Assembly (NCBI GenBank): GCA_010093605.1
Contig: MU004184.1
Coordinates: 568,801 to 632,800 of the forward strand
DNA: 64,000 nucleotides
Direction: 5' to 3'
Source: Lophium mytilinum
Taxonomy: Eukaryota
Made by a program: the position numbers and the translations under genes
The notes under the pieces: generated by a model
What the model was told of the DNA's origin: nothing
The model's database searches: none
Seen by the model: the letters and a program-made list of their open reading frames with translations, nothing else
In this document: positions 170 to 16,408 of the stretch, piece by piece
Position numbering within the stretch: the first letter of the stretch is position 1
How the letters are laid out: each line of letters opens with the position of its first letter

Positions 170-1126
170 CTACCGACCACCGAATCCTGGGGGTGGGTAC
201 CCGCGACCGCCGGGTGGCTGGAAGCCTCCTGGCGGTCCTCCGAATTGAGCTGCGATTTGTTAGTATGTTTAGGAGCAGCGGGAACAGGTGCTCTTTGACT
301 TACGAGGTCCGCCTGGGGGTCCTCCAAAACCTGCTGGGGGGAAGCCGGCTGCGATCTTATTAGTATCTCAGATGCATGAAGACTAGGTGTCAGTCGACTT
401 ACGGGGTCCGCCTGGTGGTCCTCCTCGGCCGGGAAAACCTGCAGGTGGTCCAAACCCTCCGGGAGGTCCAAAGCCTGCTGGCGGTCCTCCAAAGCCTGGT
501 CCTGGTCCTCCAACTCCAGCGGCAGGTCCAGTAAGACCAATCGGTAGGCCTCTTCCTGCGGGTTTACTGATGCCTGCACCTGGTTGTAGAGCCGCGGCCG
601 CTCCTCCAGTCGCCGGTCCGCCCAGTCTTGCGGAAGGATCGTGGGGTGGGGGACCCTCTACGGATAGCGAGACGATGTGGGTGCCGCGCAGGATGATCAG
701 CCCTAGAGTTCGCTTCTCTTCCGTCTCGACTGCTGCAGAGCTAGAACTGCCAGGCGCTTGGGAGCCCTTCGCGGCCTTCTTCGTCCGTCGAAATTCTTCG
801 GTATCGGCAAGTACGAGATTCATATGCTGCGAGAAGATCAGCAATCTTGCGCCAGAAAAGCTTGTCCCATGAGTGCCCTTACCTTATCGAAGGCCAGCAT
901 CTGTCCCACCATCTGCCTTGTATCGGTCAAGGTGGCTCGCATTTTGTAGTTGAGCTAGAACTGTCAGAGCCTTGTGTGGTATTTCTTGAGCGGGATGCTT
1001 ACTAGATTTTGCTGTAGGTCGAAGAGTTAGCTGGAACTATAGTCGGGTATCTTTCAGGGCTGCGAATGAAGTAGAGCGGGACTTGCGAGTACTTACGATC
1101 TTGCCTTGCCTATTTGCCGCAGCCAT
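170..1126 (-). CDS. SMB1: Small nuclear ribonucleoprotein Sm B
   Basis: Manual splicing (exons 1097-1126, 1003-1011, 883-954, 403-826, 304-348, 170-249) gives [51 protein letters not shown]...[26 protein letters not shown] (Sm1/Sm2 motifs) plus a Gly/Pro-rich tail. Confidence 0.95.
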
Positions 1127-1474: not shown

Positions 1475-2437
1475 ATGGCCGAATCAGGAAAGGACAAGTC
1501 AGGTATGTCTCGCCCAAGCAATTCTTCCTGTGAGCATTGGCTAACTGTCGCAGCGAACGTGAGCTACCCATTACAAGCAGAATCGAGCCTATGAAACTAA
1601 TCATCTCGCCATCTAGCCCATGCGAGAGGTACTTCCCCCAATCCAGATTATGCCTTCCAGCGATGCCAATCCGCGCAATACCTACTCGAACCCTTCAACC
1701 ACTTGCGCAAGCATATCACAACATGGCTACACCTCAAACATCCGAGATACCGCTCTCGGACAAGGACACAAATGGAATTGGGCTGACAAGCAGTTTAGCT
1801 TCGAATCAGCAAGCTGGTTCTGAACATCTCGGTGGGAGAGGTACGAGATCTTGAACATCGGGAGATACATGGACAAAATAGCTGACTTTGACAGTCTGGT
1901 GATCGCTTGACTAGGGCCGCAAAGGTCTTGGAACAGCTTTCCGGTCAAACTCCTGTCTACTCCAAGGCACGATACACCGTCCGAACCTTCGGTATCCGTC
2001 GTAACGAGAAGATTGGTGCGTTCCTCGCAACCAAGTCACTAAGCCATTGACTGACCTTGCGTCTAGCCGTCCACGTCACTGTCCGAGGACCAAAGGCTGA
2101 GGAGATTCTCGAGCGTGGCCTCAAGGTCAAGGGTGCGTTAGCTGCCTGTCTCTGAGCTCCACAACCGCTAATTCATGTAGAATACGAACTCCGCAAGAAG
2201 AACTTCAGCTCGTCCGGCAACTTCGGATTCGGTATCTCGGAACACATCGACTTGGGCATCAAATACGACCCCTCCATTGGAATCTACGGAATGGACTTCT
2301 ACTGCTGCATGACCCGCCCCGGTGCCCGCGTTGCCAAGCGTAGGCGCTGCACCTCTAAGATCGGTGCCGCTCACCGCATCAACCAAGCCGAGACCGTCAA
2401 GTGGTACAAGAACCGATTCGAGGGCATCGTGCGATAA
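1475..2437 (+). CDS. RPL11: 60S ribosomal protein L11 (uL5)
   Basis: Spliced product [69 protein letters not shown]...[28 protein letters not shown]; includes micro-exons 1554-1558 and 1617-1628. Head-to-head with SmB (~350 bp apart). Confidence 0.97.
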
Positions 2438-4545: not shown

Positions 4546-5316
4546 TAGTACCAAGATAATGAAGCGCTGTTTGAGTCTGATACACGCGCATACACGCTAC
4601 AAATGGTTTTTCAGGTCGTAGGTCTCTTTCCAGTATTTACGCTCCTATTTCTTATAGTGCTGGTAGGCTGAACAGAAGCGAAATATCTTTGTGGGTCCCG
4701 AGCGCCGAGTTGTTCTGGAAGCCAGCCGTTTGGAGTCCTGTCTACATCGCGAACGTTCCTTGCGCGGCTTGAATAACATTCCATGACGAATTCAAAGTGG
4801 AGGAGGACTATAGGGCCTTGGGGCGAATCTGTGGAGAAGCAGTGACTGAACCCAAGAGGCGTTATGAAGATGAAGATGAGTGCCGTTTTGGATCCCTAGG
4901 CGACGAAAGATAAATAGGGTATGAGTTTGGACACACGAAGATCACGATGCTTGCGCCCCAATCTTGCTCGTTGCATGTATTCGGGCTGCCAAAACGCAGT
5001 CTGATATTCATCTTACCAACCTTTACATCCTTTGTAGTCTCAAAGACCTACGAGACTACGTATGGAGATAGAGAGGGTTCCACGCAGTCCAAATGATACT
5101 CAGAAATCACGGACGACGAATTTGAGTGGAAAGTCATTGATTAGACCCATCTAAGTTTACCTCAGGCCAATGGAACCAACATCTTGGAAGGGAATGAAGG
5201 CCTTTCACGCTCAGTCTGGTGTAAGAGGACATGAGTATCGAACCACACCGATACTTACAGTCTTATTCCCGTAGTCTCCACCTTCAAAGACTCGCAGGGG
5301 CTCTCGCCGCTCTGCC

Positions 5317-7832
5317 CTAATGAAATGCGGACGCCGGCAATCCATGAGCGATTGCAACGTCCCTCAAGCAGTCGCACATGCGCACAGCCGGCCCCATTGC
5401 AATGTTGGCTGGCAAGTACGGCTGGAAGTCGTGAAGAATACCCATATTAGTGCTGCATTTGTAGGCAGATCTCACTTCGGCTTCGACGAACTTTGATCCT
5501 TCGAAGTATTGCTTCACCTTTTCCAGCGTCAACTCAGCCAGGCCCGGAATCTCGTATCCCATACCCGCAGCGAAGATGCAGAGATGCTCCAGCAGCGACA
5601 GCTTCCTCTTGGTGAGTGGGTCGATTGTGAAGCCAAATTTGACGTCCGCAGTAGTGTCTGGCTCCACATAAGTATCGTAGTCACCGGAATAGATGAACTC
5701 GATGACACGGTCCATGACGATACGGTCCCAGCGTTCGTATCTCACGGTTCCGCCCGACTATTCAGAACAGATTAGTCAGAACTATAAGGTATGTATTTAA
5801 GTGAGCACTTACCGCTGCATCCTTGGGAATGAGATCACCAGCTTTGGAGGCAATGACGGCCATGTGAACATTCCACTTGTGGGCCTTCGTCGTGATCGTG
5901 TAATCGCTGTATTTGCCAGTTTGGAGAAGCTGAAGGAATGAGCTAGCAAAGTTAGTAAAGGCCTCCATTGGAGATAGCTGCGAATGACTTACTCCTTGGG
6001 ATGATCATCCTTGAGCTCGTTTTTCTTGCCAGGGGGTCCCACCCGGACAGGTGCTACTCCGGAGTTCGCAGAAGTTGTAGGCTGAGACTGGAAGATACCA
6101 GAGCTCGGAACTCCACGATGGGGCATGAGGGGAGTAGTATTTGATCCTCCGAAGTTGCTAGAATGCTGTTCTCTGAAGAAGTCGCTAGAATACAGGGGCT
6201 GACAGGACGCCAAAGGAATGCTCCACTCTCCAACCTGAGGGCGCGTCTGTCCCTGGCCGAAGAGATTACTAGACTGATGTCCGTGGCCTCCATACCCTTG
6301 TCCGCTGAAGGCCCCATAGTGTGGTCCGTAGCTATCATATGGTGTTCCAAAACGTCTAAACTGAAGCTGGGCCGCCTTCATTCGTGCTTCCCGCTCCTGG
6401 TCTACTTCAAGCGCACTCTGCATAGAAGTCCTGAAGCCTCCAAAGCCCGTACCTGCTTGATATTGGGCCTGTCCGTCGTTCAGCTCAGAGCCAGAAGAGT
6501 ATCCAAAGCGGCTACCCGGCTGTTGTCCTCCGAAGAGACCAGAAGACTGTGCTGCGTTCGTAGGGGCATAAGAGCTGAATGCGCCAAAGACACCCTGTCC
6601 ATGGTACTCGCGGGGTGCTGCTGAGCCAAACAGGCCGCCGCCAGACTGTCGTCCTGCCGCAACTGTAGACGGGGTGCCAAAGAGACCACCGCCAGAACGT
6701 TGTCCTGCCGAAGCCGTAGATGGGGCACCAAATCCGCCAAAGAGACCACCGCCCTGTCCCTGACGATCGCGAGATACTGCTGAGCCGAACAGACCGCCAC
6801 CAGACTGTTGTCCTGTCGAAACTGTAGACGGGGTGCCAAAAAGCCCCCCGGAGGATTGGCCCTGTCCCTGGTTCTCGCGGGATGTGAACAGGCCACCACC
6901 AGACTGTCGTCCAGTCGAAGCTGTAGACGGAGCGCCGACTGTAGAGCCAAACAGGCCGCCGCCAGACTGTTGTCCTGTCGAAGCTCTAGACGGGGCGCCG
7001 AATGCGGAGCCAAAGAGGCCGCCGCCAGACTGTGTCCCTGTCGAAGGTTTAGACAGGGCGCCAAATCCGCCAAAGAGACCACCGCCCTGTCCCTGGTTAT
7101 CGCGGGATGCTCCCGAGCCAAACAGGCCGCCACCAGACTGCCGTCCTCTCGAAGCTCCAGGCGGAAGGCCAGAAAGACCGCGCTTTGGGTTTGAAGGATC
7201 TCCGAAGAGGCCCCCTCCTGGCTGCCTATCATGAGTTTGAGGGGCTGGCTTGACCTTCGACTCCGGCTTGGATGCCGCGTGTTTGGACTGCATTAGAGAC
7301 GGCAAGAGTGTATTCTCCGCATGCTTAGACTGCATCGGAGCAGAAGAGAGGGTAGAATTCGCGCCACTCATAGCGCCGGTGATGCCTTGACCACAACCAG
7401 CTGCCGCGGGATGTGAGGCGATGTTCTGCGAAGGTCCACCTGCCCGATCGCTGTAATGGCATGGCATGCCGCTTCACGATGTCAGCGCCTGTGTTCAACG
7501 GAAGAATTGTTTAACGGCATCACTTACTCTTTTGCACATTCTGTACACTTTTCACCACCACCTGAACACTGGATTCCCGCACTGTGGCACGTGTCGCATG
7601 CCATAGGAAGGAACTGTCCCTGATTCACTCCATCGGCGCCAACAGTGGTCTTTGTGACGTGATTGGCTTCGTCATTGGTAACTCCCGCGACGCTGGGCAT
7701 AGTAGGGCCATTGAGTTGGCTGCTGGGCTGCGGGGAAGCCATCTTTGCAGTGCCGTCGGTGGAGGGTGTCGGGGGGGAAGTGTCGGAGCTTGTGGACTCG
7801 AGGTCCTCGACAAACGCTGGCTTGGGTTGCAT
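5317..7832 (-). CDS. Zn(II)2Cys6 DNA-binding domain + GLFG-repeat region + BTB/POZ domain protein (~784 aa)
   Basis: Exons 7528-7832, 5993-7471, 5813-5942, 5317-5757 sum to 2355 nt in one frame; all donors are GTAAGT. Splicing completes CDTCHSAGIQCSGGGEKCTECAKDGMPC. Middle region has 11 GLFG motifs. C-terminus has LLQTGKYSDYTIT..WNVHMAVIAS...VMDRVIEFIYSGDY, typical of fungal BTB domains. Confidence 0.85.
6529..7224 (-). repeat. Coding imperfect tandem repeats encoding (Q/R)SGGGLFG units
   Basis: Recurring plus-strand CCAAACAGGCCGCCGCCAGACTG / CCAAAGAGACCACCGCC motifs about every 50-70 bp. Confidence 0.9.
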
Positions 7833-9031
7833 GTTTGCGGTTGTGGTATGTGGTTAAGAAGAGGAAGATAGATTCAAGTCCTCGAGAGACCGATCAAATA
7901 GTGAGGTTGGCCAAAGCTGCGGTCTGTAGGTGAATGATGATTTATAGCTGGCAACTTTTGCATTCGTCTATGCCAGGCACCAAACTAGTCAGATGACGAT
8001 CTTACGGTGACAAGCCATAAGTCTGGGCACACTGGTTCGCCACTGCTTATGGCGCCCCAACTGGCTTTCGGAGATTCAAGGGCGATCTCGCTTCCAAGCA
8101 ATGTAGATTAGACTGCCTCTTGACTGAATGGCTCCTCAGCTGCCAAGCTACCCCCGACAGTGGTGTCAACTGAGTAACATTGGAGCTAAGCAGTGACAGA
8201 GTCGTATGTCCAAACTTATAGCCTATTCCTGTACGTTTACCTCCTCTAGAAGTGCTATGAAGAATCGCTTAGATGCCGAATACAAAACTGTTTGGAGTGT
8301 CAGCTTCCGAAGTTGTAACATTGGGAGCGTGGTTGTGACTTGCGCTTGATACTGTGAGGCCTCCCCCTAAGCGTATGCCCTGAACGGGACAGTTGATAGC
8401 ATGATAGAAGGCTTTTGAATATAAGAGGAACAGTCATCACGTCACAAACGTCCCAATACTCCGATGCGCAAGCACATTAATACCTGACTCTTTTTTTACC
8501 TGAACGGAAGGAGATTCTAGCGGCCCTGATCTGAAATCTTACAGTGCCGCAACGAGTATTTGTGGATATAGGTGTTGATAAAGTGCTTAATGTAGCAAGC
8601 CTTAGCAGTATAGAGGGTAAGTTCCTTTCCTACTTTCATCAGGTGCCACGTGACTAGGGCTAAACTAGAAAAAGGTTTGCAGGTGATAAAAGTGGGGAAA
8701 CCTCTGTCCTCTATACTTTGATAACCTTGGAGCATCTTCAATGTGTCAAGACCTGCTACAAGACCATGACAAGTTCTAAGATGGAACATAGGAATCAAGA
8801 AGATATGATATTGATGAACGGGAATGTAGCGATAGTAATTAAGAAATGCTTACACCTAAATGCAATGTAAACGCTAAACGAATGCGCAGTAAAAAGCAGT
8901 GGTATCTGTTTCCATCCAGCCAAAACTCCAATATAAAACCCAAACACCCGCTTGCCCATGCTAAATGCAACGCTAACGCTTGAGACAAAAGGAAATATGA
9001 CGCTGAGAAAAGACTGTCCGAGTGCTCCGCA

Positions 9032-10354
9032 CTATACACCCCTCCGCGGACTCACACCACGAACTCCTAGACCGCCAAGATCTCTACTATCCCTACCGAA
9101 TCCTGCGTCCTCCATCAGCCTTGTGAATGTCGTCCCACCAGTCAGTGGTCGTCCGTTGGCACCCGTGTCCGAATTTGGCACTCCTAGGAAGCTCGGAGCG
9201 GGCATCAAGACGTCAATCGTCTCAGTGCTGCCACTCCTCTCAGGCCCTGCTCTTCGCTTAGATCGGGATGAGCGAGATGAGCGGGAAGTAGGTGTGCGAG
9301 TTGGGGTGGTATAAGGATCGCGCGCCGCAGAGCCACCTGGGCCGAGCTTAGGAGATTTAGAGAAGAGAGCACGAACTCGCGGAGTTGTTGTCTGAGCGCG
9401 AGGCGGCGATGGAAACTGGTTCATTTTGCCGCCGGTGGTATTGCTACGATTCATGTTGATGTTCGCATTCGCGAGAGACATGCCGACCGTGCCCATTTGC
9501 ATCTCCGTGTCGCGTGCGGGTGATTGTTGGCTGGCTACACTAGCGCTTCCACGACGCAGGAAGTCGGTGCGTGCTGCATAGACAGGATCGTAGATGGGAT
9601 CGGAGACAGTGCGAGCGACATGGCCAAAGTCACCACTGTAGCGATTCTTGGCTGCTTCGCGGCGTTTGTTGATGAGCCAGATGATAGCGACGGCAAGGAT
9701 AGCGCCGAGAAGCATGCCTGGGAAAAATCCGGCTACGACTGCTTTGGCAGGGAAGCCAGAGTTGGAGGGGGGTGCGGTGGTGGGGATGGGGGGACCGGAT
9801 ACAGCGGTCTGGGAGGACTGTGGAAGAGCAGTGCCAGTGCCAGTTGCAGAGGCAGTAGGTGATAAGGAAGAAGATGCAGAGGCTGCAGAAGATGGTTTGG
9901 AGACGGCGCACATGCCACCTTGGCATCCGTAGCCCAACGGACAGCATGAGCTACCGCATGTCTCGAGCTTGAGGTCGGTAGTGTTGGCCGTGTGTATTTG
10001 ATTGTCGGGATGTTTTGTTGCGTCGAGCTGGGTCACATCACATGTGATGGGTTGGATGAAGCCGCAGTCCTGGCCGGCAGGACAACAGATGGCGGAGATT
10101 GAGACAGTATTATTGATCGAGAGGCATTTCGAGTCGGTAGGACAGCAGAACTCGGAGGGAAAGGATGCTCCGCATTGCGAGAGGCCAGAATTCCCTCCAC
10201 ACACTGTCTCTCGCTGTATTAGACCCACGGACTGGGCAGCGGAGACGGCGGCGGCGAGGGCGGAGGTAGCGGGGACGGTGGTGGATATTAGACAGATGAG
10301 AGATAGCTTCTGGAGATTGGACGAGAACATGTTGGCAGCAGGACAATAGCCCAC
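9032..10354 (-). CDS. Type I membrane protein, Mid2/Wsc-like architecture (putative cell-surface sensor)
   Basis: Single ORF: hydrophobic signal peptide, Cys-rich ectodomain, Ser/Thr-rich stalk, TM helix VVAGFFPGMLLGAILAVAIIWLI followed by NKRR, cytosolic tail. True start may be the second ATG (MFSSN). Confidence 0.75.
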   Translation of the reverse strand: MGYCPAANMFSSNLQKLSLICLISTTVPATSALAAAVSAAQSVGLIQRETVCGGNSGLSQCGASFPSEFCCPTDSKCLSINNTVSISAICCPAGQDCGFIQPITCDVTQLDATKHPDNQIHTANTTDLKLETCGSSCCPLGYGCQGGMCAVSKPSSAASASSSLSPTASATGTGTALPQSSQTAVSGPPIPTTAPPSNSGFPAKAVVAGFFPGMLLGAILAVAIIWLINKRREAAKNRYSGDFGHVARTVSDPIYDPVYAARTDFLRRGSASVASQQSPARDTEMQMGTVGMSLANANINMNRSNTTGGKMNQFPSPPRAQTTTPRVRALFSKSPKLGPGGSAARDPYTTPTRTPTSRSSRSSRSKRRAGPERSGSTETIDVLMPAPSFLGVPNSDTGANGRPLTGGTTFTRLMEDAGFGRDSRDLGGLGVRGVSPRRGV

Positions 10355-10888
10355 GAGTATGATTATAAGAAGAAATATATGAACAAAGACACAGACACAA
10401 TGGGATTTTTCTGTCTTAGGGCGATGATAGTCGAGGTCGAAACACGAAACGATCGAGAAAGAACATGGCGGGCAGCACAGCAGTATATAGAGATACGAAA
10501 ATAGAGTCGACCTACCTCACGGCCGTGGCATCAGGCTCTGAATGACGGTCTGTCGCGCGATGTGCAGGCCCAATAGGCCGCCGGATGTTCTGGAAATAGC
10601 CCATTCTTCGCGCCGAGTGGTGTGCAGCGTCTGGAGAGCGAAGCAGCTAACCGTGCACCAGCGGCAGGTGACTCTTCACATCGTGTGGCTATGCTTTTGC
10701 AGGTCGCTGAGAGGGTGAAACGCTGGCACCGCGGGCGGCTCTGCTGTATCATGTTGTTTGCAGCGAACAGCGACGACGCCCCGTGAGTGGCCCGCAGCTC
10801 TGGCGTCTCATCCCGAGTCGGCTAGCGCAACCTGGGACGACCAGAAATTGTTGCATCGCGACTCTAACCACCACAGCACACCCACGCC

Positions 10889-12161
10889 ATGATAATACAG
10901 CCTACCCTCCGCCTGCCCCGGCACCTGTTCCGATCCGCAGATCGTGCTGCAGTACGTCTCCCGCCCAATGCAATGCGGCCGCTGTGGTGGCCGCCCTCTG
11001 GAGCCCGACTGACGCGGCTACGTTTTAGAGATGCTTCTCGCAGAGCGCCCCGGCGCGGGCCCACAAGATGCCTGAGTTGAACCATGACAAGGACATGCGA
11101 CGAGATGGCATCAGGGGGCTCTACTCGCCCGATGGCATTGCAATTGCCTGGGTCGAGTACCATGGCATGCTGCTGAACAAGCTCAACTTCATGACCGCCG
11201 GTACGCCTCCGCACTCCCGAGCCCGCACCACCCATTACGACCTGCAATGTTTGCCAATTAGAGAGGGCATGTGCTGATATCTGGATACAGGGGGCGAAGA
11301 GGAGAACTGGGAGCCCAAGAAGCTGCTGATACACTACGCCCGCGATCCCACCAACGCCGCCATATTCAACCTCGCCTCCATGGCCTGGAACAACCACTTT
11401 TTCTTCAAGGGAATAGTACGCCTACCCTTCCTTCTACTCACCCCCTCTCCGAATCCTACACATCCACAATTACCAGACTTCGCTGACCGCCCCAGTTCCG
11501 CGCCCCCTCCCCCAAGAAGAAGGATGACCCCCCTCCCACCCCCCCTCCCATGCCCACCACCCTCGCTACCACCCTCGCCAGCGAATTCGGCTCCATCCAA
11601 ACCCTCCGCGACGAGTTCCTCGCCACCGCAAACTCCATGTTCGGGCCGGGCTTTGTCTGGCTCGTCAAGACGAAGACAGGCTACAACTCCAGCTTCCGCA
11701 TCCTGCCCACCTACATGGCCGGCTCGCCGCTGGCCGGCGCCCACTACCGGCGCCAGCCCGTGGACATGAACACGCAGAACGGCGACTCGGCCGCCAGCCT
11801 GGGCCTCAGCCGCGCCGAGCTGGGCAAGATGGGCGTGCCGACAAACTCGGTCGGCGCCTTTGGCGCGCAGAGCGCCAGCTACGCCAAGCAGCCGAAGCTC
11901 GCGTACGGCGGGGTGGATGTGACGCCTCTGCTATGCGTCAGCACGTGGGAGCACTCGTGGCTGCGCGACTGGCGCGTCGGCGGCGTAGTCGATCCTAATG
12001 ATCCTGATGGAGTTGTTGGACCCACGGGCAAGGAGAACTTTTTGGCTGCGTGGTGGGATCGGATTGACTGGAAGGTGGTGTATGATCTTATGCAAGACAG
12101 CGCGACGTCGAGGCAGGGCTCAACGAACAACGACCGCGCCTTTGCCTTCAACAGGTCGTGA
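10889..12161 (+). CDS. Mitochondrial small-subunit ribosomal protein with Fe/Mn-SOD fold (Rsm26/Mrp1-like)
   Basis: 4 exons; Arg-rich presequence; FNLASMAWNNHFFF, FGSIQTLRDEFLATANSMFGPGFVWLV, PLLCVSTWEHSWLRDW, WWDRIDW. The SOD ligand motif DxWEHAY appears as STWEHSW. Confidence 0.85.
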
Positions 12162-12861: not shown

Positions 12862-15800
12862 CTAGTACGCTCTCCGATCACCAGCACCCACAACCTGCAT
12901 CGGACTCACCCCTCTCGTCCCAACACCTCCCACGCCAGCTCCCCCGCCTCCGACACCCACACCAGCCGCGATGGGGTTTTCGTAGCCCGCTAGTCCTGCG
13001 CTCCCTCTACGTGCAAATGCCCCATACGCATTCGGTGGTGGGGCGAAAGCGCTCTGCGGCGGAGCAAAAGCCCCTGGCGGAGCGCCTATATTGCGATTGC
13101 TCCTCCTTCGACCAAGCGTCGGTTGCTGCGGCGACGAGGCAGGCTGGTGCGTAGGATTGCTGCGGACAGACGTGATGGATTCGTTGGAGTTGGAGCGGGA
13201 ATGCATCGGGGCGGGGAGAGCAGAGGAAGGCGCTGTTTCGGCTGGGGCAGAGTTGGTGTCGCGGGTTGGTAGACTCTGACTTGGGCGGCGGGCACCGGCC
13301 GTAAAGGGGTTGCGGGTTTGCGTTTGAGCTGTGCCAGGCTGATAAGTCCCTAATTCGCGAGCCCGGTTGTTGACCAGCTCGCGCGCGAGGCTGAGGCGCT
13401 CGTCCTCGGTAAGACGGGGTCGAACTGCAGGAGTAGGAGCGATGCCTGGTGACGGTGGTTGGCTTGGAGGTCGCGCTAAATCGCTGGCGCGGAGGGTTCG
13501 TGTCGATGCTTGGTTGTTGAGGCGGCGACTGGAGGCCTGTGGACGCAAATTCTGCCGAGACTCTCGGGGCCGCATCGTCTGCGGTGAGTTGCCACCATCG
13601 TGGATGTTGACCCTAGAGGCTTGTTCTCGGAGACCCCTACGGGAATTGCTTGCCCTGAGCGTTGCTACGGATGATTGATCTCTCAGAGCAGTCCTTGAAG
13701 GGCGGTTTCTAACGACGCCTTGTGGGCCGCTGTTGACGTATGTAGCCCATGGATTTCGAAGAGGCTGTGTTGGGTTGCCAAACATACGTGCGCCAAAGTT
13801 CAATCCGACGCCTGGTGTAGAGAGGCCTGGGAATGATGGCGACAATCCTGCAGATCCCCGTCCTGCGCCGAACGTTGGTCGTGAACTAACACGACTCGGC
13901 GGGCGATCGATCATGTCGACTGAAGCTGCTGTCGCGGCTTGAGAGATAGAGTTGACAGATGACTGAGAGGCAGAGCGGACTGAGCTCGCAGGTGTAAGCT
14001 GGCCAGACGAGCTTCCGGTGGAGGCAATGGAGGTTGCACGTTCTACAGGAATGCTACTATTCCTTCCCACAACTTCGGATGCCGAGGACAGATTCGGAGT
14101 GAAGCCTGACCTAGATGCTTGAGATGGTGAGCCGCGTACGGCTACACCGCCATTCAAGGAATTATCCATGGACGGCGTACGCAATCGTGCAGGTGCAGCA
14201 CGAGGTATCGAAAAAGGAGAGAACGGTGGTGCAGGACTTGCTTGGGCACTGTTACGATTCCTATTTGCAGTCCTCGGTCGAGCGATTGGAGTCGTCGAAC
14301 GAAGCTGCTCCAAGTAATCATAGGGTGCCCCGACTCTCTCTGTTTCGCGGAGATCGGCCAAGTGCGAAGCAAACATCCAGCTGATTCTCGGGTCGTATTC
14401 CTGCTGACGAGCTCGAGCAGTTCCACGACGTCGCTGTGCTTGCTGCGAGGTGTCAGAGTTGTCGTCGGTGTCAAGCTCAATGGCATCGGTTTGAGAGGTT
14501 CCGCGATTAGCAAACCGGCTTGTAGAATTATTAGAGAGAGAACCTGTTCGCATTTGTACCCGAGATTGGCGAGGCCGTAGGGTATTCGAGCTCATAGTAA
14601 TGTCCCCATCGCGGTCCATGTCAGAGTCGTCGTCGTCTGCTTCACCATCTTCATATGTAACCGTCGCATTAGATAGAACAGAGGATCTTCGTCGAAGGCC
14701 GCGCGACCCATCTAAGAGCCGGTTGTTGCCTGTGCGGGAGGGCGGGCGGATTGGGGCGTTAGGCCGGGGTCGATCTGCAGTAGGCGTTAGAGAACCACCG
14801 ATTCGAGCTCTATCATTGGAAATCGCAGTCGGCTCCCACCCAACAGTCGTCCTTCCCCCATCGCTATCATCATCATCTTCCATCTCCTCATCCGGCCCGT
14901 CGTGTGCAAGAGGTGACCATCCGGCCGCTTGAAGCAAGGCCTGTGTATCCTCGTCCAGCTCATGGTGAGCAGATGCCTCGGTAGAAGTTGACGAAGGCGC
15001 TTGTCTTGTGCCGTTTGCTCGGTTCAATACGCGCGCTTGTTGACGACGTCGGCCAGCTGGGATTATTGGACCCTCGTCCTCATCGTCCTCTTCTGTAGAC
15101 TGTGACATGTCTGAAGATGCCTCGGACTCAAGAATCCGGCGATTTCGTTGCTGTCGATTTGGAGGTGGTTGAGGCTGTGGAGTTTGCGAGGCTGTGGAAG
15201 CAGTGCCAAGGGAACCGCCTTCATCATCTTCGATAAAGTCGTTCATGGAGGAGTCCTCGTCGTAGTCTTCCTCATCCTCTTCCTCCACCGTGTCCATCTC
15301 CTCGGTCAGCATGTCGGAAACTATGCTCGCGCTATACGACGGACGTCTGCTGCCGGCCTCACTATGGGTCAAGCGGCGTTGCGGCATGCGCCTTGGAATA
15401 CCTCCCGCAGCTAGGAATCGCTGCATCATGAACGATTGGTCGTCGTCGGGGTAGCCCTGTCCCCATGCCCCCAATTCCTCGTCGTAAGGGTCCCATACAT
15501 TGCCTTCGTCGTCCATTTCGAGTTCTGCATCGAGGTCTTCTCCGGACATGTCGTGTTCAGACAGCTCATCCATGTCGCTGAAGCCTCCAAAGCTGTCACC
15601 CCAGGTAATTTCCCCGTTGTCGTCGAACATGGCGCCACATCCAGCACATTCTCCCCCTTCAAGCTCCCATGCGCACCTAGGACACCTCTCGATCCCATCT
15701 TCTTCGTCTCGGATTATTCGGAGGCGGTCGCTTGGGCGTTGCTTGAAGCATCCCTTGAAGAGTCCGCCAGTTCTGGAATCGGTGTTGACCTTGTCCCGTT

Positions 15801-16408
15801 GCACGATGTCTGCTTCTTCCTTCTGCCACTGTTTGTGCTGCTCCAAAGTCTCGCCGGCAGGCAGTAGTTCGGCTCGGTTGATAAAGATGTGGGTCATGTC
15901 TCGAAGCTAGATTGTGCGAGTTAGAAGAATACTTGATTCTAGGCCTGGCTTGCTTACAACATATGCTGGCGCTGGTGCCTGAGTGACGACGGTTCGGCAG
16001 TCGGGACATGTTTTTTTAACCTTGTTACTGACGAACCAAGTACAAAGACACTACGGATAATCAGTATGGTGTCAGAGTCAAGTAGTATGTGGGAACTGAC
16101 GCTGTAGCAATATGTATGCCCGCAAGAGATAATGTAGGGCTCGTAGAATAGCCGATCACATATTTTGCAGGTGACGTGTGTGCGAAGACTGTCGAAGTCG
16201 GACTTATAGCTGTTCAGCTGCTGTTCCCAGAGTTAGCTCGCCGTCCACGCCAATATGAGGGGCACCCGTCTCATCACGCCTCACTAACCTCTTCAGTCTT
16301 GCTCGGTGTTGGGGCTTCCTCTGGCTTCTTCTTAGGTGGTGCTTTTAGGCCGATTCCTGGGGTGTTCTGAGCCGAACTCAGCCTCCGAGGTTTCGTGTTG
16401 GAGGCCAT
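12862..16408 (-). CDS. RING-finger E3 ubiquitin ligase, Psh1-like, with long disordered C-terminus
   Basis: ATG at 16408. Spliced RING: CKICDRLFYEPYIISCGHTYCYSCLCTWF...KTCPDC. Second Cys motif CPRCAWELEGGECAGC, then acidic and Ser/Arg-rich low-complexity sequence. Confidence 0.85.

Follow-up and report, generated by a model that had tools for sequence, protein, structure and literature searches.

A spliced Lophium mytilinum gene joining a Zn2Cys6 cluster, a GLFG-repeat array and a BTB-like domain in one reading frame

Results and Discussion

Gene structure and transcript cover

The window analysed in this study is a 64,000-nucleotide stretch of DNA from Lophium mytilinum (assembly GCA_010093605.1, contig MU004184.1, positions 568,801 to 632,800 of the forward strand). 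On its minus strand lies the gene for hypothetical protein BU16DRAFT_523685 (hereafter P0001), which combines, from the N- to the C-terminus, a Gal4-type Zn2Cys6 cluster, an array of GLFG repeats, a degenerate FG-bearing linker and a BTB-like domain (Table 1). A preliminary description of this DNA, made from the letters alone, had joined open reading frame (ORF) fragments through three canonical introns into one frame of 784 amino acids (aa), and this model was borne out: the four exons splice into 2355 nt, i.e., 784 codons and a stop, and the spliced translation equals the deposited 784-aa protein in every letter. All three introns start with GTAAGT, end with AG and contain a CTAAC- or CTGAC-like branch site. 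Note that UniRef names the protein 'Zn(2)-C6 fungal-type domain-containing protein'.

Table 1. Features of the P0001 gene and of its neighbours (nt positions are those of the window, aa positions those of P0001).
Feature	Position (nt)	Strand	Remarks
3' untranslated region (UTR)	5058-5316	-	X1 contig reaches 5058; bins 4800-5041 have depth 0
Exon 4, aa 639-784 and stop codon (5317-5319)	5317-5757	-	ORF and spliced model
Intron 3, 55 nt	5758-5812	-	skipped by X1 contig
Exon 3, aa 595-638, start of BTB-like domain	5813-5942	-	spliced model and X1 contigs
Intron 2, 50 nt	5943-5992	-	skipped by X1 contig
Exon 2, aa 102-594	5993-7471	-	Pfam Nucleoporin_FG 34.9 bits (cutoff 32.2) on the exon alone
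Intron 1, 56 nt, GTAAGT...AG	7472-7527	-	skipped by X1 contig, 255 nt on the shorter side
Exon 1, aa 1-101 and two bases; acidic Ser/Thr/Pro-rich N-terminus and Cys1-Cys5	7528-7832	-	Pfam Zn_clus 17.2 bits on the exon alone
5' UTR	7833-7998	-	RNA-derived contig colinear over 7528-7998; in-frame stop just upstream of ATG 7832 (ORF 7524-7853)
Upstream ORF in the 5' UTR, 29 codons	7874-7963	-	ATG at 7963
Zn2Cys6 cluster, aa 79-106, CX2CX6CX6CX2CX6C	7459-7598	-	intron 1 falls between Cys5 and Cys6
GLFG array, aa 185-420	6517-7224	-	13 G[LV]F[GT] motifs (11 exact GLFG), 14-28 aa spacing
Gly/Ser/Phe/Tyr-rich linker, aa 421-593	5998-6516	-	degenerate FG motifs (NLFG, SNFG); aa 496 onward aligns to P0114
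BTB-like domain and helical C-terminal extension, aa 594-784	5320-5997	-	includes introns 2 and 3
LSM-domain gene	383-883	-	Pfam on single exon
Ribosomal uL5 (C-terminus)	2156-2437	+	Pfam on single exon
Fe/Mn superoxide dismutase C-terminal domain	11487-12161	+	Pfam on single exon

The splice junctions were checked in the Logan contigs of one public sequencing run that holds the stretch (X1), the label of which, 'RNA?', is a guess. Its contigs omit precisely the three predicted introns (5758-5812, 5943-5992 and 7472-7527), leaving CT..AC ends on the plus strand, and X1 was taken as RNA-derived because its contigs lack all three. Depth in the intron-bearing bins likewise matches zero intron cover, as exemplified by bin 7462-7582, for which 8.35 × 65/121 gives 4.49. 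Cover by X1 is unbroken from 5058 to 7998 and consists of three overlapping contig pieces, with no loose ends reported inside the gene and a modest contig word depth of 8-11. Specifically, piece 5058-6757, from which two introns are removed, runs from the BTB exons into the FG region; piece 7066-7998, from which one intron is removed, runs from the FG region through the zinc-cluster exon into the 5' UTR; and piece 6733-7090 lies between the other two. The two contig breaks, at 6733-6757 and 7066-7090, fall inside the repeat array, and neighbouring pieces overlap there by 25 nt. As far as contigs can tell, this continuous cover agrees with the earlier view of a single gene instead of a separate gene for each domain. 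The locus is one real, spliced and transcribed chimeric gene, and its three modules are each of a known type. Antisense ORFs over the repeat array were considered as the coding frame and rejected, given the GT..AG splice orientation on the minus strand.

GLFG array

All of the 11 exact GLFG motifs proposed from the letters were found in P0001, together with the variants GLFT (aa 295), GVFG (aa 395) and NLFG (aa 504). Shuffled sequences held 0.06 exact motifs on average and 3 at most, and none of 10000 shuffles reached 11. The region between aa 185 and 420 (236 aa) has 15 FG dipeptides, or 6.4 per 100 aa. This density lies within the working definition of at least 5 FG per 200 aa that is given, in the excerpted text of PMC8311347, along with an average of 43 ± 6 FG in 549 ± 87 aa for Nup98 homologues. 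The composition of the region (G 29%, S+T 21%, Q+N 11%) agrees with the Ser/Thr/Gln/Gly spacers described before, yet these low-charge spacers are not charge-free, since they hold 14 K/R and 5 D/E (8.1% charged, net +9). Against a cutoff of 32.2, the Pfam Nucleoporin_FG score was borderline, with 34.9 bits when exon 2 was taken by itself and 25.5 bits for the full-length P0001.

We next consider how the array may have arisen. Tandem Repeats Finder reported 63-nt DNA units in 2.9-3.0 copies (83-86% matches) and 51-nt units in 2.1 copies (78%), and the units at aa 217, 233 and 253 run parallel to those at aa 328, 344 and 364. Paired units are 78-88% identical in DNA, and their proportions of synonymous (pS) and non-synonymous (pN) differences are 0.30 and 0.12, a ratio of 0.40 obtained from a small sample of four pairs and 74 codons. 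Among the 13 motif copies, the G-L-F-G residues are altered only twice (to V and to T), and their codons vary among GGC, GGT and GGG, among CTC, CTG and CTT, and between TTT and TTC. At the six core positions of the 13 copies (GG followed by G-L-F-G), codon-pair differences amount to 220 synonymous versus 69 non-synonymous. The simplest history of these repeats would be that tandem and higher-order duplications enlarged the array where it stands and that it has been maintained at the protein level since then.

C-terminal BTB-like domain

The C-terminal part of P0001 was compared with BTB domains by features, by fold and by profile alignment. In the Atlas, all 30 of the nearest feature clusters of aa 585-784 were BTB (0.95), and the Atlas's own model of this segment gave a template modelling (TM) score of 0.74 to an Ascomycota BTB cluster and of 0.61-0.69 to BTB/SPOP-BACK-type clusters. 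The look-alikes of the P0001 C-terminus are Ascomycota BTB clusters of 212-337 aa. A profile alignment of three homologues (A1) was then aligned by hhalign with the BTB domain of P0055, a metagenome protein (88.4%, E 2.8e-6, 67 columns), and with a BTB ORF on the metagenome locus L001 (85.8%, E 5.3e-6, 53 columns), which itself scores 23.4 bits on Pfam BTB (cutoff 20.5). Both matches fall within aa 600-668 of P0001. The homologue P0114 scored 13.6 bits on the same Pfam model (E 0.08), below the cutoff, and no BTB entry was among the 16 sequences that phmmer returned for P0001 from the PDB. We accept that P0001 ends in a divergent BTB domain followed by a BACK-like tail of helices, and regard this as the weakest of the modules.

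The preliminary description had also suggested that the domain brings Cul3 to chromatin. In the excerpted text of PMC3616122, the phi-x-E motif buries the most surface in BTB-Cul3 structures, and the E85A substitution in KLHL3 abolished measurable Cul3 binding. The corresponding position (alpha3.1) reads K-D-A in P0001 and P0114 and P-D-F in P0116, whereas the fungal BTB domain of L001 reads M-S-E, and the helix preceding it is five residues shorter than in the L001 domain. Note that the alignment is only about 40% identical, which makes this result one of moderate strength. Judging from these residues, recruitment of Cul3 through the canonical phi-x-E contact appears unlikely, and the suggestion was not upheld.

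N-terminal zinc cluster

The zinc cluster, CDTCHSAGIQCSGGGEKCTECAKDGMPC (aa 79-106), matches the pattern CX2CX6CX5-12CX2CX6-8C, and Pfam Zn_clus (PF00172) recognised it at aa 78-112 of P0001 with 27.1 bits (cutoff 21, E 4.4e-6), confirming the complete six-Cys cluster that had been read from the letters. In a phmmer search of the PDB with P0001, Gal4 structures were the best zinc-cluster matches (1d66, E 0.0045), with the six Cys in register. P0001 thus resembles the Gal4-type Zn2Cys6 factors in the number and exact spacing of its Cys residues, in their position near the N-terminus and in passing PF00172. It differs from these factors in what lies between the Cys residues. In the 1d66 alignment, the stretch from Cys2 to Cys3 is H-S-A-G-I-Q, that is, H-x2-G-x-Q in place of R-x2-K-x-K, so that R15, K18 and K20 of Gal4 correspond to H, G and Q; moreover, Pro26 of Gal4, the conserved Pro between the two halves, corresponds to Glu. 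According to the available part of PMC4025492, the Arg and the second Lys of the Gal4 motif touch phosphates and the first Lys touches bases. In P0001, aa 75-112 contain 3 K/R and 5 D/E (net charge -2), versus 11 and 4 (net +7), by hand count, in the aligned Gal4 stretch.

Other parts of a fungal transcription factor were sought as well. At E ≤ 1, Pfam found only Zn_clus and Nucleoporin_FG in P0001, with no middle homology domain of fungal transcription factors and no other transcription factor domain; a coiled-coil linker after the cluster was not recognised in this search, no separate coiled-coil test being made. A word-based search with exon 1 among proteins of 178-2000 aa (228 candidates) returned P0001 itself only. 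The non-basic residues at the R-x2-K-x-K positions, the negative net charge and the missing middle homology domain speak against the 'sequence-specific factor' of the preliminary description. The cluster lacks the usual DNA-contact residues, and canonical DNA binding by it is doubtful.

Relatives and history

To place P0001 among its relatives, exon 4 was searched by phmmer against 1.84 billion representatives, which gave five matches at E ≤ 1e-3, namely P0001 itself, P0114 (KAF2810398.1, 299 aa, E 6.4e-52) and P0116 (KAF2810397.1, 357 aa, E 3.6e-5) of Mytilinidion resinicola, P0115 and P0117. The latter two, a protein with CBM_14 chitin-binding repeats and a repeat protein, respectively, were judged spurious after Pfam analysis and dropped. 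P0114 and P0116, each named 'BTB domain-containing protein' in UniRef, are true homologues of the C-terminal part of P0001. P0114 aligns over its whole length with aa 496-784, the identity being 57%, and has 3 GLFG motifs; P0116 shows 35% identity over aa 594-739 and has one LFGG. These small fungal BTB proteins differ from the 784-aa P0001 in lacking both the zinc cluster and a long GLFG array. Their GenBank and RefSeq accessions are consecutive, which suggests that they are tandem paralogues in M. resinicola.

Identity between P0001 and P0114 is unevenly distributed. It amounts to 62 of 75 residues in the BTB core (aa 594-668), compared with 23 of 48 and 19 of 47 in the linker and 20 of 44 in the C-terminal tail, and because of this difference the folded BTB core was taken as the constrained part. 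Two proximal FG motifs are kept in position, NLFG of P0001 corresponding to GLFG of P0114 and SNFGG to GLFGG.

When aa 425-784 were searched by a word index against proteins of 431-1372 aa (3643 candidates), only P0001 itself was found. With exon 2, a search among proteins of 270-861 aa found P0001 and 112 others, all of which carry Nucleoporin_FG and most of which are named as Nup49/54/57-type. Among these 112, none has Zn_clus (PF00172), one has a BTB domain (P0055) and none is from Lophium or Mytilinidion. Since no non-self match came from the same species, a recent capture of the array from the fungus's own nucleoporin is argued against. A metagenome scan with A1 yielded only two near-identical loci (98.6%) with a generic fungal BTB domain, which were rejected as orthologues.

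Judged from these comparisons, the zinc cluster and the amplified GLFG array were found in L. mytilinum only, and the core of FG linker and BTB domain is common to the sister genus. The simplest history would start from an ancestral FG-BTB gene, followed by growth of the array in place and by the grafting of a zinc-cluster 5' end. No protein with the same three-part combination appeared in our sequence searches. The literature searched likewise contained no Zn2Cys6-BTB or Zn2Cys6-FG protein, although an InterPro architecture query could still show one, and the earlier remark that no fungal protein with this combination had been described agrees with both results. Among the matches listed for Lophium mytilinum, no title concerned this gene, and the species is not mentioned in the main text of PMC7082219. 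In an Aspergillus niger cluster, BTB and Zn2Cys6 proteins are encoded by separate neighbouring genes, according to the excerpted text of PMC6776626.

Comparison with known systems

The GLFG nucleoporins (Nup98/Nup100/Nup116/Nup145N, and Nup49/Nup57, which correspond to Nup58/Nup54) resemble P0001 in their GLFG motifs set in Gly/Ser/Thr/Gln spacers. The best non-self matches of P0001 in sequence are of the Nup49/54/57 type, with E values as low as 5.9e-12, and in the PDB a match was made to entry 9hcj, in a nuclear pore protein (E 3.1e-5). However, the likeness is compositional and covers 10-51% of the query. Unlike these nucleoporins, P0001 has no GLEBS, no autoproteolytic domain that anchors to the nuclear pore complex and no Nup54 or Nup49 helical domain (Pfam, E ≤ 1), and its spacers are more charged.

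Animal BTB-zinc-finger factors such as PLZF, BCL6 and Kaiso combine a BTB domain with a zinc-dependent module of the DNA-binding type, the BTB domain being N-terminal and the zinc module consisting of C2H2 fingers. They are not known to share homology with P0001 beyond the BTB fold.

P0055 (440 aa) independently joins GLFG repeats (Pfam, 75 bits) to a canonical BTB domain (84.9 bits) and a BACK domain. One stretch of it weakly resembles the GLEBS of Nup98 (14 bits, which is under the cutoff), and it has no zinc cluster. Its BTB domain aligns to aa 600-666 of P0001 with 22% identity over 67 hhalign columns, indicating that the two proteins are not orthologues. A scan of viral contigs with P0055 found no relative.

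The NUP98 fusion oncoproteins, e.g., NUP98-HOXA9, share with P0001 a design in which a GLFG domain and a domain of the DNA-binding type occur in one chain, and this is an analogy only. As described in the available part of PMC8983581, these fusions are somatic and human, carry the FG region N-terminally and a functional DNA- or chromatin-binding part C-terminally, and form transcriptional condensates through the FG region. In P0001, by contrast, the order is reversed, the gene is a natural germline one and the DNA-binding module looks disabled.

Interpretation

With moderate confidence, we read P0001 as a BTB-anchored scaffold that displays a selected GLFG array and whose zinc cluster is probably not a canonical DNA reader. 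The protein would be a mostly disordered chimera, with a conserved core that consists of the FG-motif-bearing linker and the divergent BTB domain with its BACK-like tail. To this core the Lophium copy would have added the GLFG array, grown in place, and the N-terminal zinc cluster, with its contact residues lost. The BTB domain would self-associate and so present two or more cohesive GLFG domains; these may capture nuclear transport receptors or enter FG phases, whether inside the nucleus or at pores. The zinc cluster would act as a small zinc-folded module and not as a canonical reader of CGG. For P0001, we infer BTB self-association, FG cohesion, transport-receptor binding and localisation, and what the available parts of the literature say of known GLFG domains makes FG cohesion, karyopherin binding and pore tethering plausible.

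Several points weigh against this scaffold model. First, Pfam BTB (PF00651) gave no match in P0001 or in its exons at E ≤ 1, and A1 gave no match in the PDB at E ≤ 10. The C-terminal BTB domain of the preliminary description stands on its fold and feature look-alikes and on hhalign; self-association is, in addition, assumed from the BTB family. Second, Nup98 spacers are described as 'uncharged' or 'charge-depleted' in the excerpted literature, and at 8.1% charged residues the cohesion of the P0001 array may be weakened. Third, six Cys at the exact Gal4 spacing and in the N-terminal position that is usual for zinc-cluster factors could mean that the cluster still does non-canonical work on DNA. 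Fourth, X1 may be the source transcriptome of the deposited gene model, in which case it is not independent of the annotation. Finally, the word-based searches with exon 1, exon 2 and aa 425-784 can miss distant relatives, and the M. resinicola gene model may be 5'-truncated, so that what looks 'added in Lophium' could be 'lost or unannotated in Mytilinidion'.

A first alternative is that P0001 is a young and effectively neutral chimera, in which a fast-evolving FG-BTB gene acquired the 5' end of a decaying zinc-cluster gene and a slippage-prone, low-complexity array expanded; the gene would be transcribed at a low level and have no selected function as a whole. We consider this unlikely. The full architecture was seen in one species only, its zinc cluster is degenerate, the tandem DNA repeats are 78-88% identical to each other, the contigs have a modest word depth, the homologue from the sister genus is only 57% identical, and the gene lies among unrelated housekeeping genes (LSM, ribosomal uL5 and superoxide dismutase). 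However, 784 codons have stayed open and three introns are correctly spliced. Furthermore, the GLFG core is kept despite many synonymous changes, with a pN/pS of 0.40 between units, the six Cys are kept at exact spacing, and the BTB core is 83% conserved between the genera, compared with 40-48% in the flanks.

A second alternative, also unlikely in our judgement, is that P0001 is a bona fide sequence-specific Zn2Cys6 factor, in which the GLFG array builds transcriptional condensates or tethers loci to pores and the BTB domain dimerises the protein in place of a coiled coil. The metazoan BTB-zinc-finger factors show that a BTB domain and a zinc DNA-binding domain are a workable combination. Zn_clus lies above its Pfam cutoff with six Cys in the Gal4 register near the N-terminus, and the C-terminus resembles a BTB domain. 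The density of GLFG motifs is like that of nucleoporins by the available part of PMC8311347, and the FG region of NUP98 fusion oncoproteins drives transcriptional condensates according to that of PMC8983581. Against such a transcription factor, all R-x2-K-x-K positions are non-basic, the Pro is replaced by Glu, and the net charge is negative where that of Gal4 is positive. No Fungal_trans-type or other transcription factor domain was found by Pfam at E ≤ 1. In addition, no relative of the cluster could be detected, P0114 as the closest homologue does not have it, and the dimerising domain is some 490 residues away from the cluster.

A bolder proposal, which we hold to be quite improbable, goes beyond the scaffold model. 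FG-BTB proteins might be an unrecognised kind of factor, in which a self-associating BTB hub bearing nucleoporin-type GLFG repeats enters or nucleates FG phases or captures nuclear transport receptors. In Lophium, the added zinc cluster would make such a protein a natural counterpart of the NUP98 fusions, concentrating an FG condensate at particular nuclear sites, and P0055 would be a convergent second case.

Least credible by a wide distance is a gene-model artefact, in which two or three genes (zinc-cluster, FG and BTB) were wrongly merged: although the Logan contigs break twice in the array and contigs cannot prove a single molecule, one contig (5058-6757) holds both the BTB exons and FG sequence and another (7066-7998) holds FG sequence, the zinc-cluster exon and the 5' UTR, neighbouring pieces share 25 nt, the frame is open throughout and the gene contains no loose ends, and the deposited model has the same 784 aa.

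If P0001 is functional, the protein would be a naturally evolved chain of a cohesive GLFG domain, an oligomerising hub and a module of the DNA-binding type, a design whose other known examples are the NUP98 fusions that cause leukaemia and engineered condensate tools. The role of FG repeats outside the pore could then be studied in a simple fungal system. The gene is also of evolutionary value, as a putative example, dated by comparison with the sister genus, of an FG array growing in place from few motifs, and of a zinc-cluster exon grafted onto an unrelated gene with its DNA-contact residues lost. At present, it is a single-species architecture at the level of sequence and transcript contigs.

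Neighbouring genes and transcripts

The surroundings of the P0001 gene were examined by Pfam and Rfam. No second copy of the BTB domain or of the zinc cluster was found within the 64-kb window, and Rfam gave no match anywhere in it at gathering thresholds. The neighbours with Pfam matches encode an LSM-domain protein, ribosomal uL5 and an Fe/Mn superoxide dismutase (Table 1), and with such neighbours a role of P0001 as the regulator of a biosynthetic cluster was rejected. Two long minus-strand frames have no Pfam match. By eye, the first (9032-10516, 494 codons) resembles a single-pass membrane protein: a Cys-rich N-terminal region is followed by a stalk rich in Ser, Thr and Ala, then by a hydrophobic span, and the tail is rich in Arg and Ser. 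The second (12862-15906, 1014 codons) is nearly all of low complexity, acidic at first and then Ser/Arg/Pro-rich, and has one CPRC...CAGC four-Cys motif near its N-terminus.

Two further observations concern transcripts upstream of the P0001 gene. In X1, a contig that spans 8061-8400 at depth 7.1 leaves out 56 nt at 8288-8343 on the minus strand, and the skipped segment has GC..AG ends, a GCAAGT donor and a CTGAC branch site. This skip lies upstream of the 5' UTR and may come from a separate transcript or from the upstream gene, at its 3' end. Between 7946 and 8187, where neither an Rfam match nor internal repeats were found, the summed contig depth reaches 216 and 93, compared with about 8 for the gene, and contigs have loose ends at 8014 and 8102. 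This jump in depth may mark the presence, between the two genes, of either a dispersed repeat or a short RNA of high abundance.

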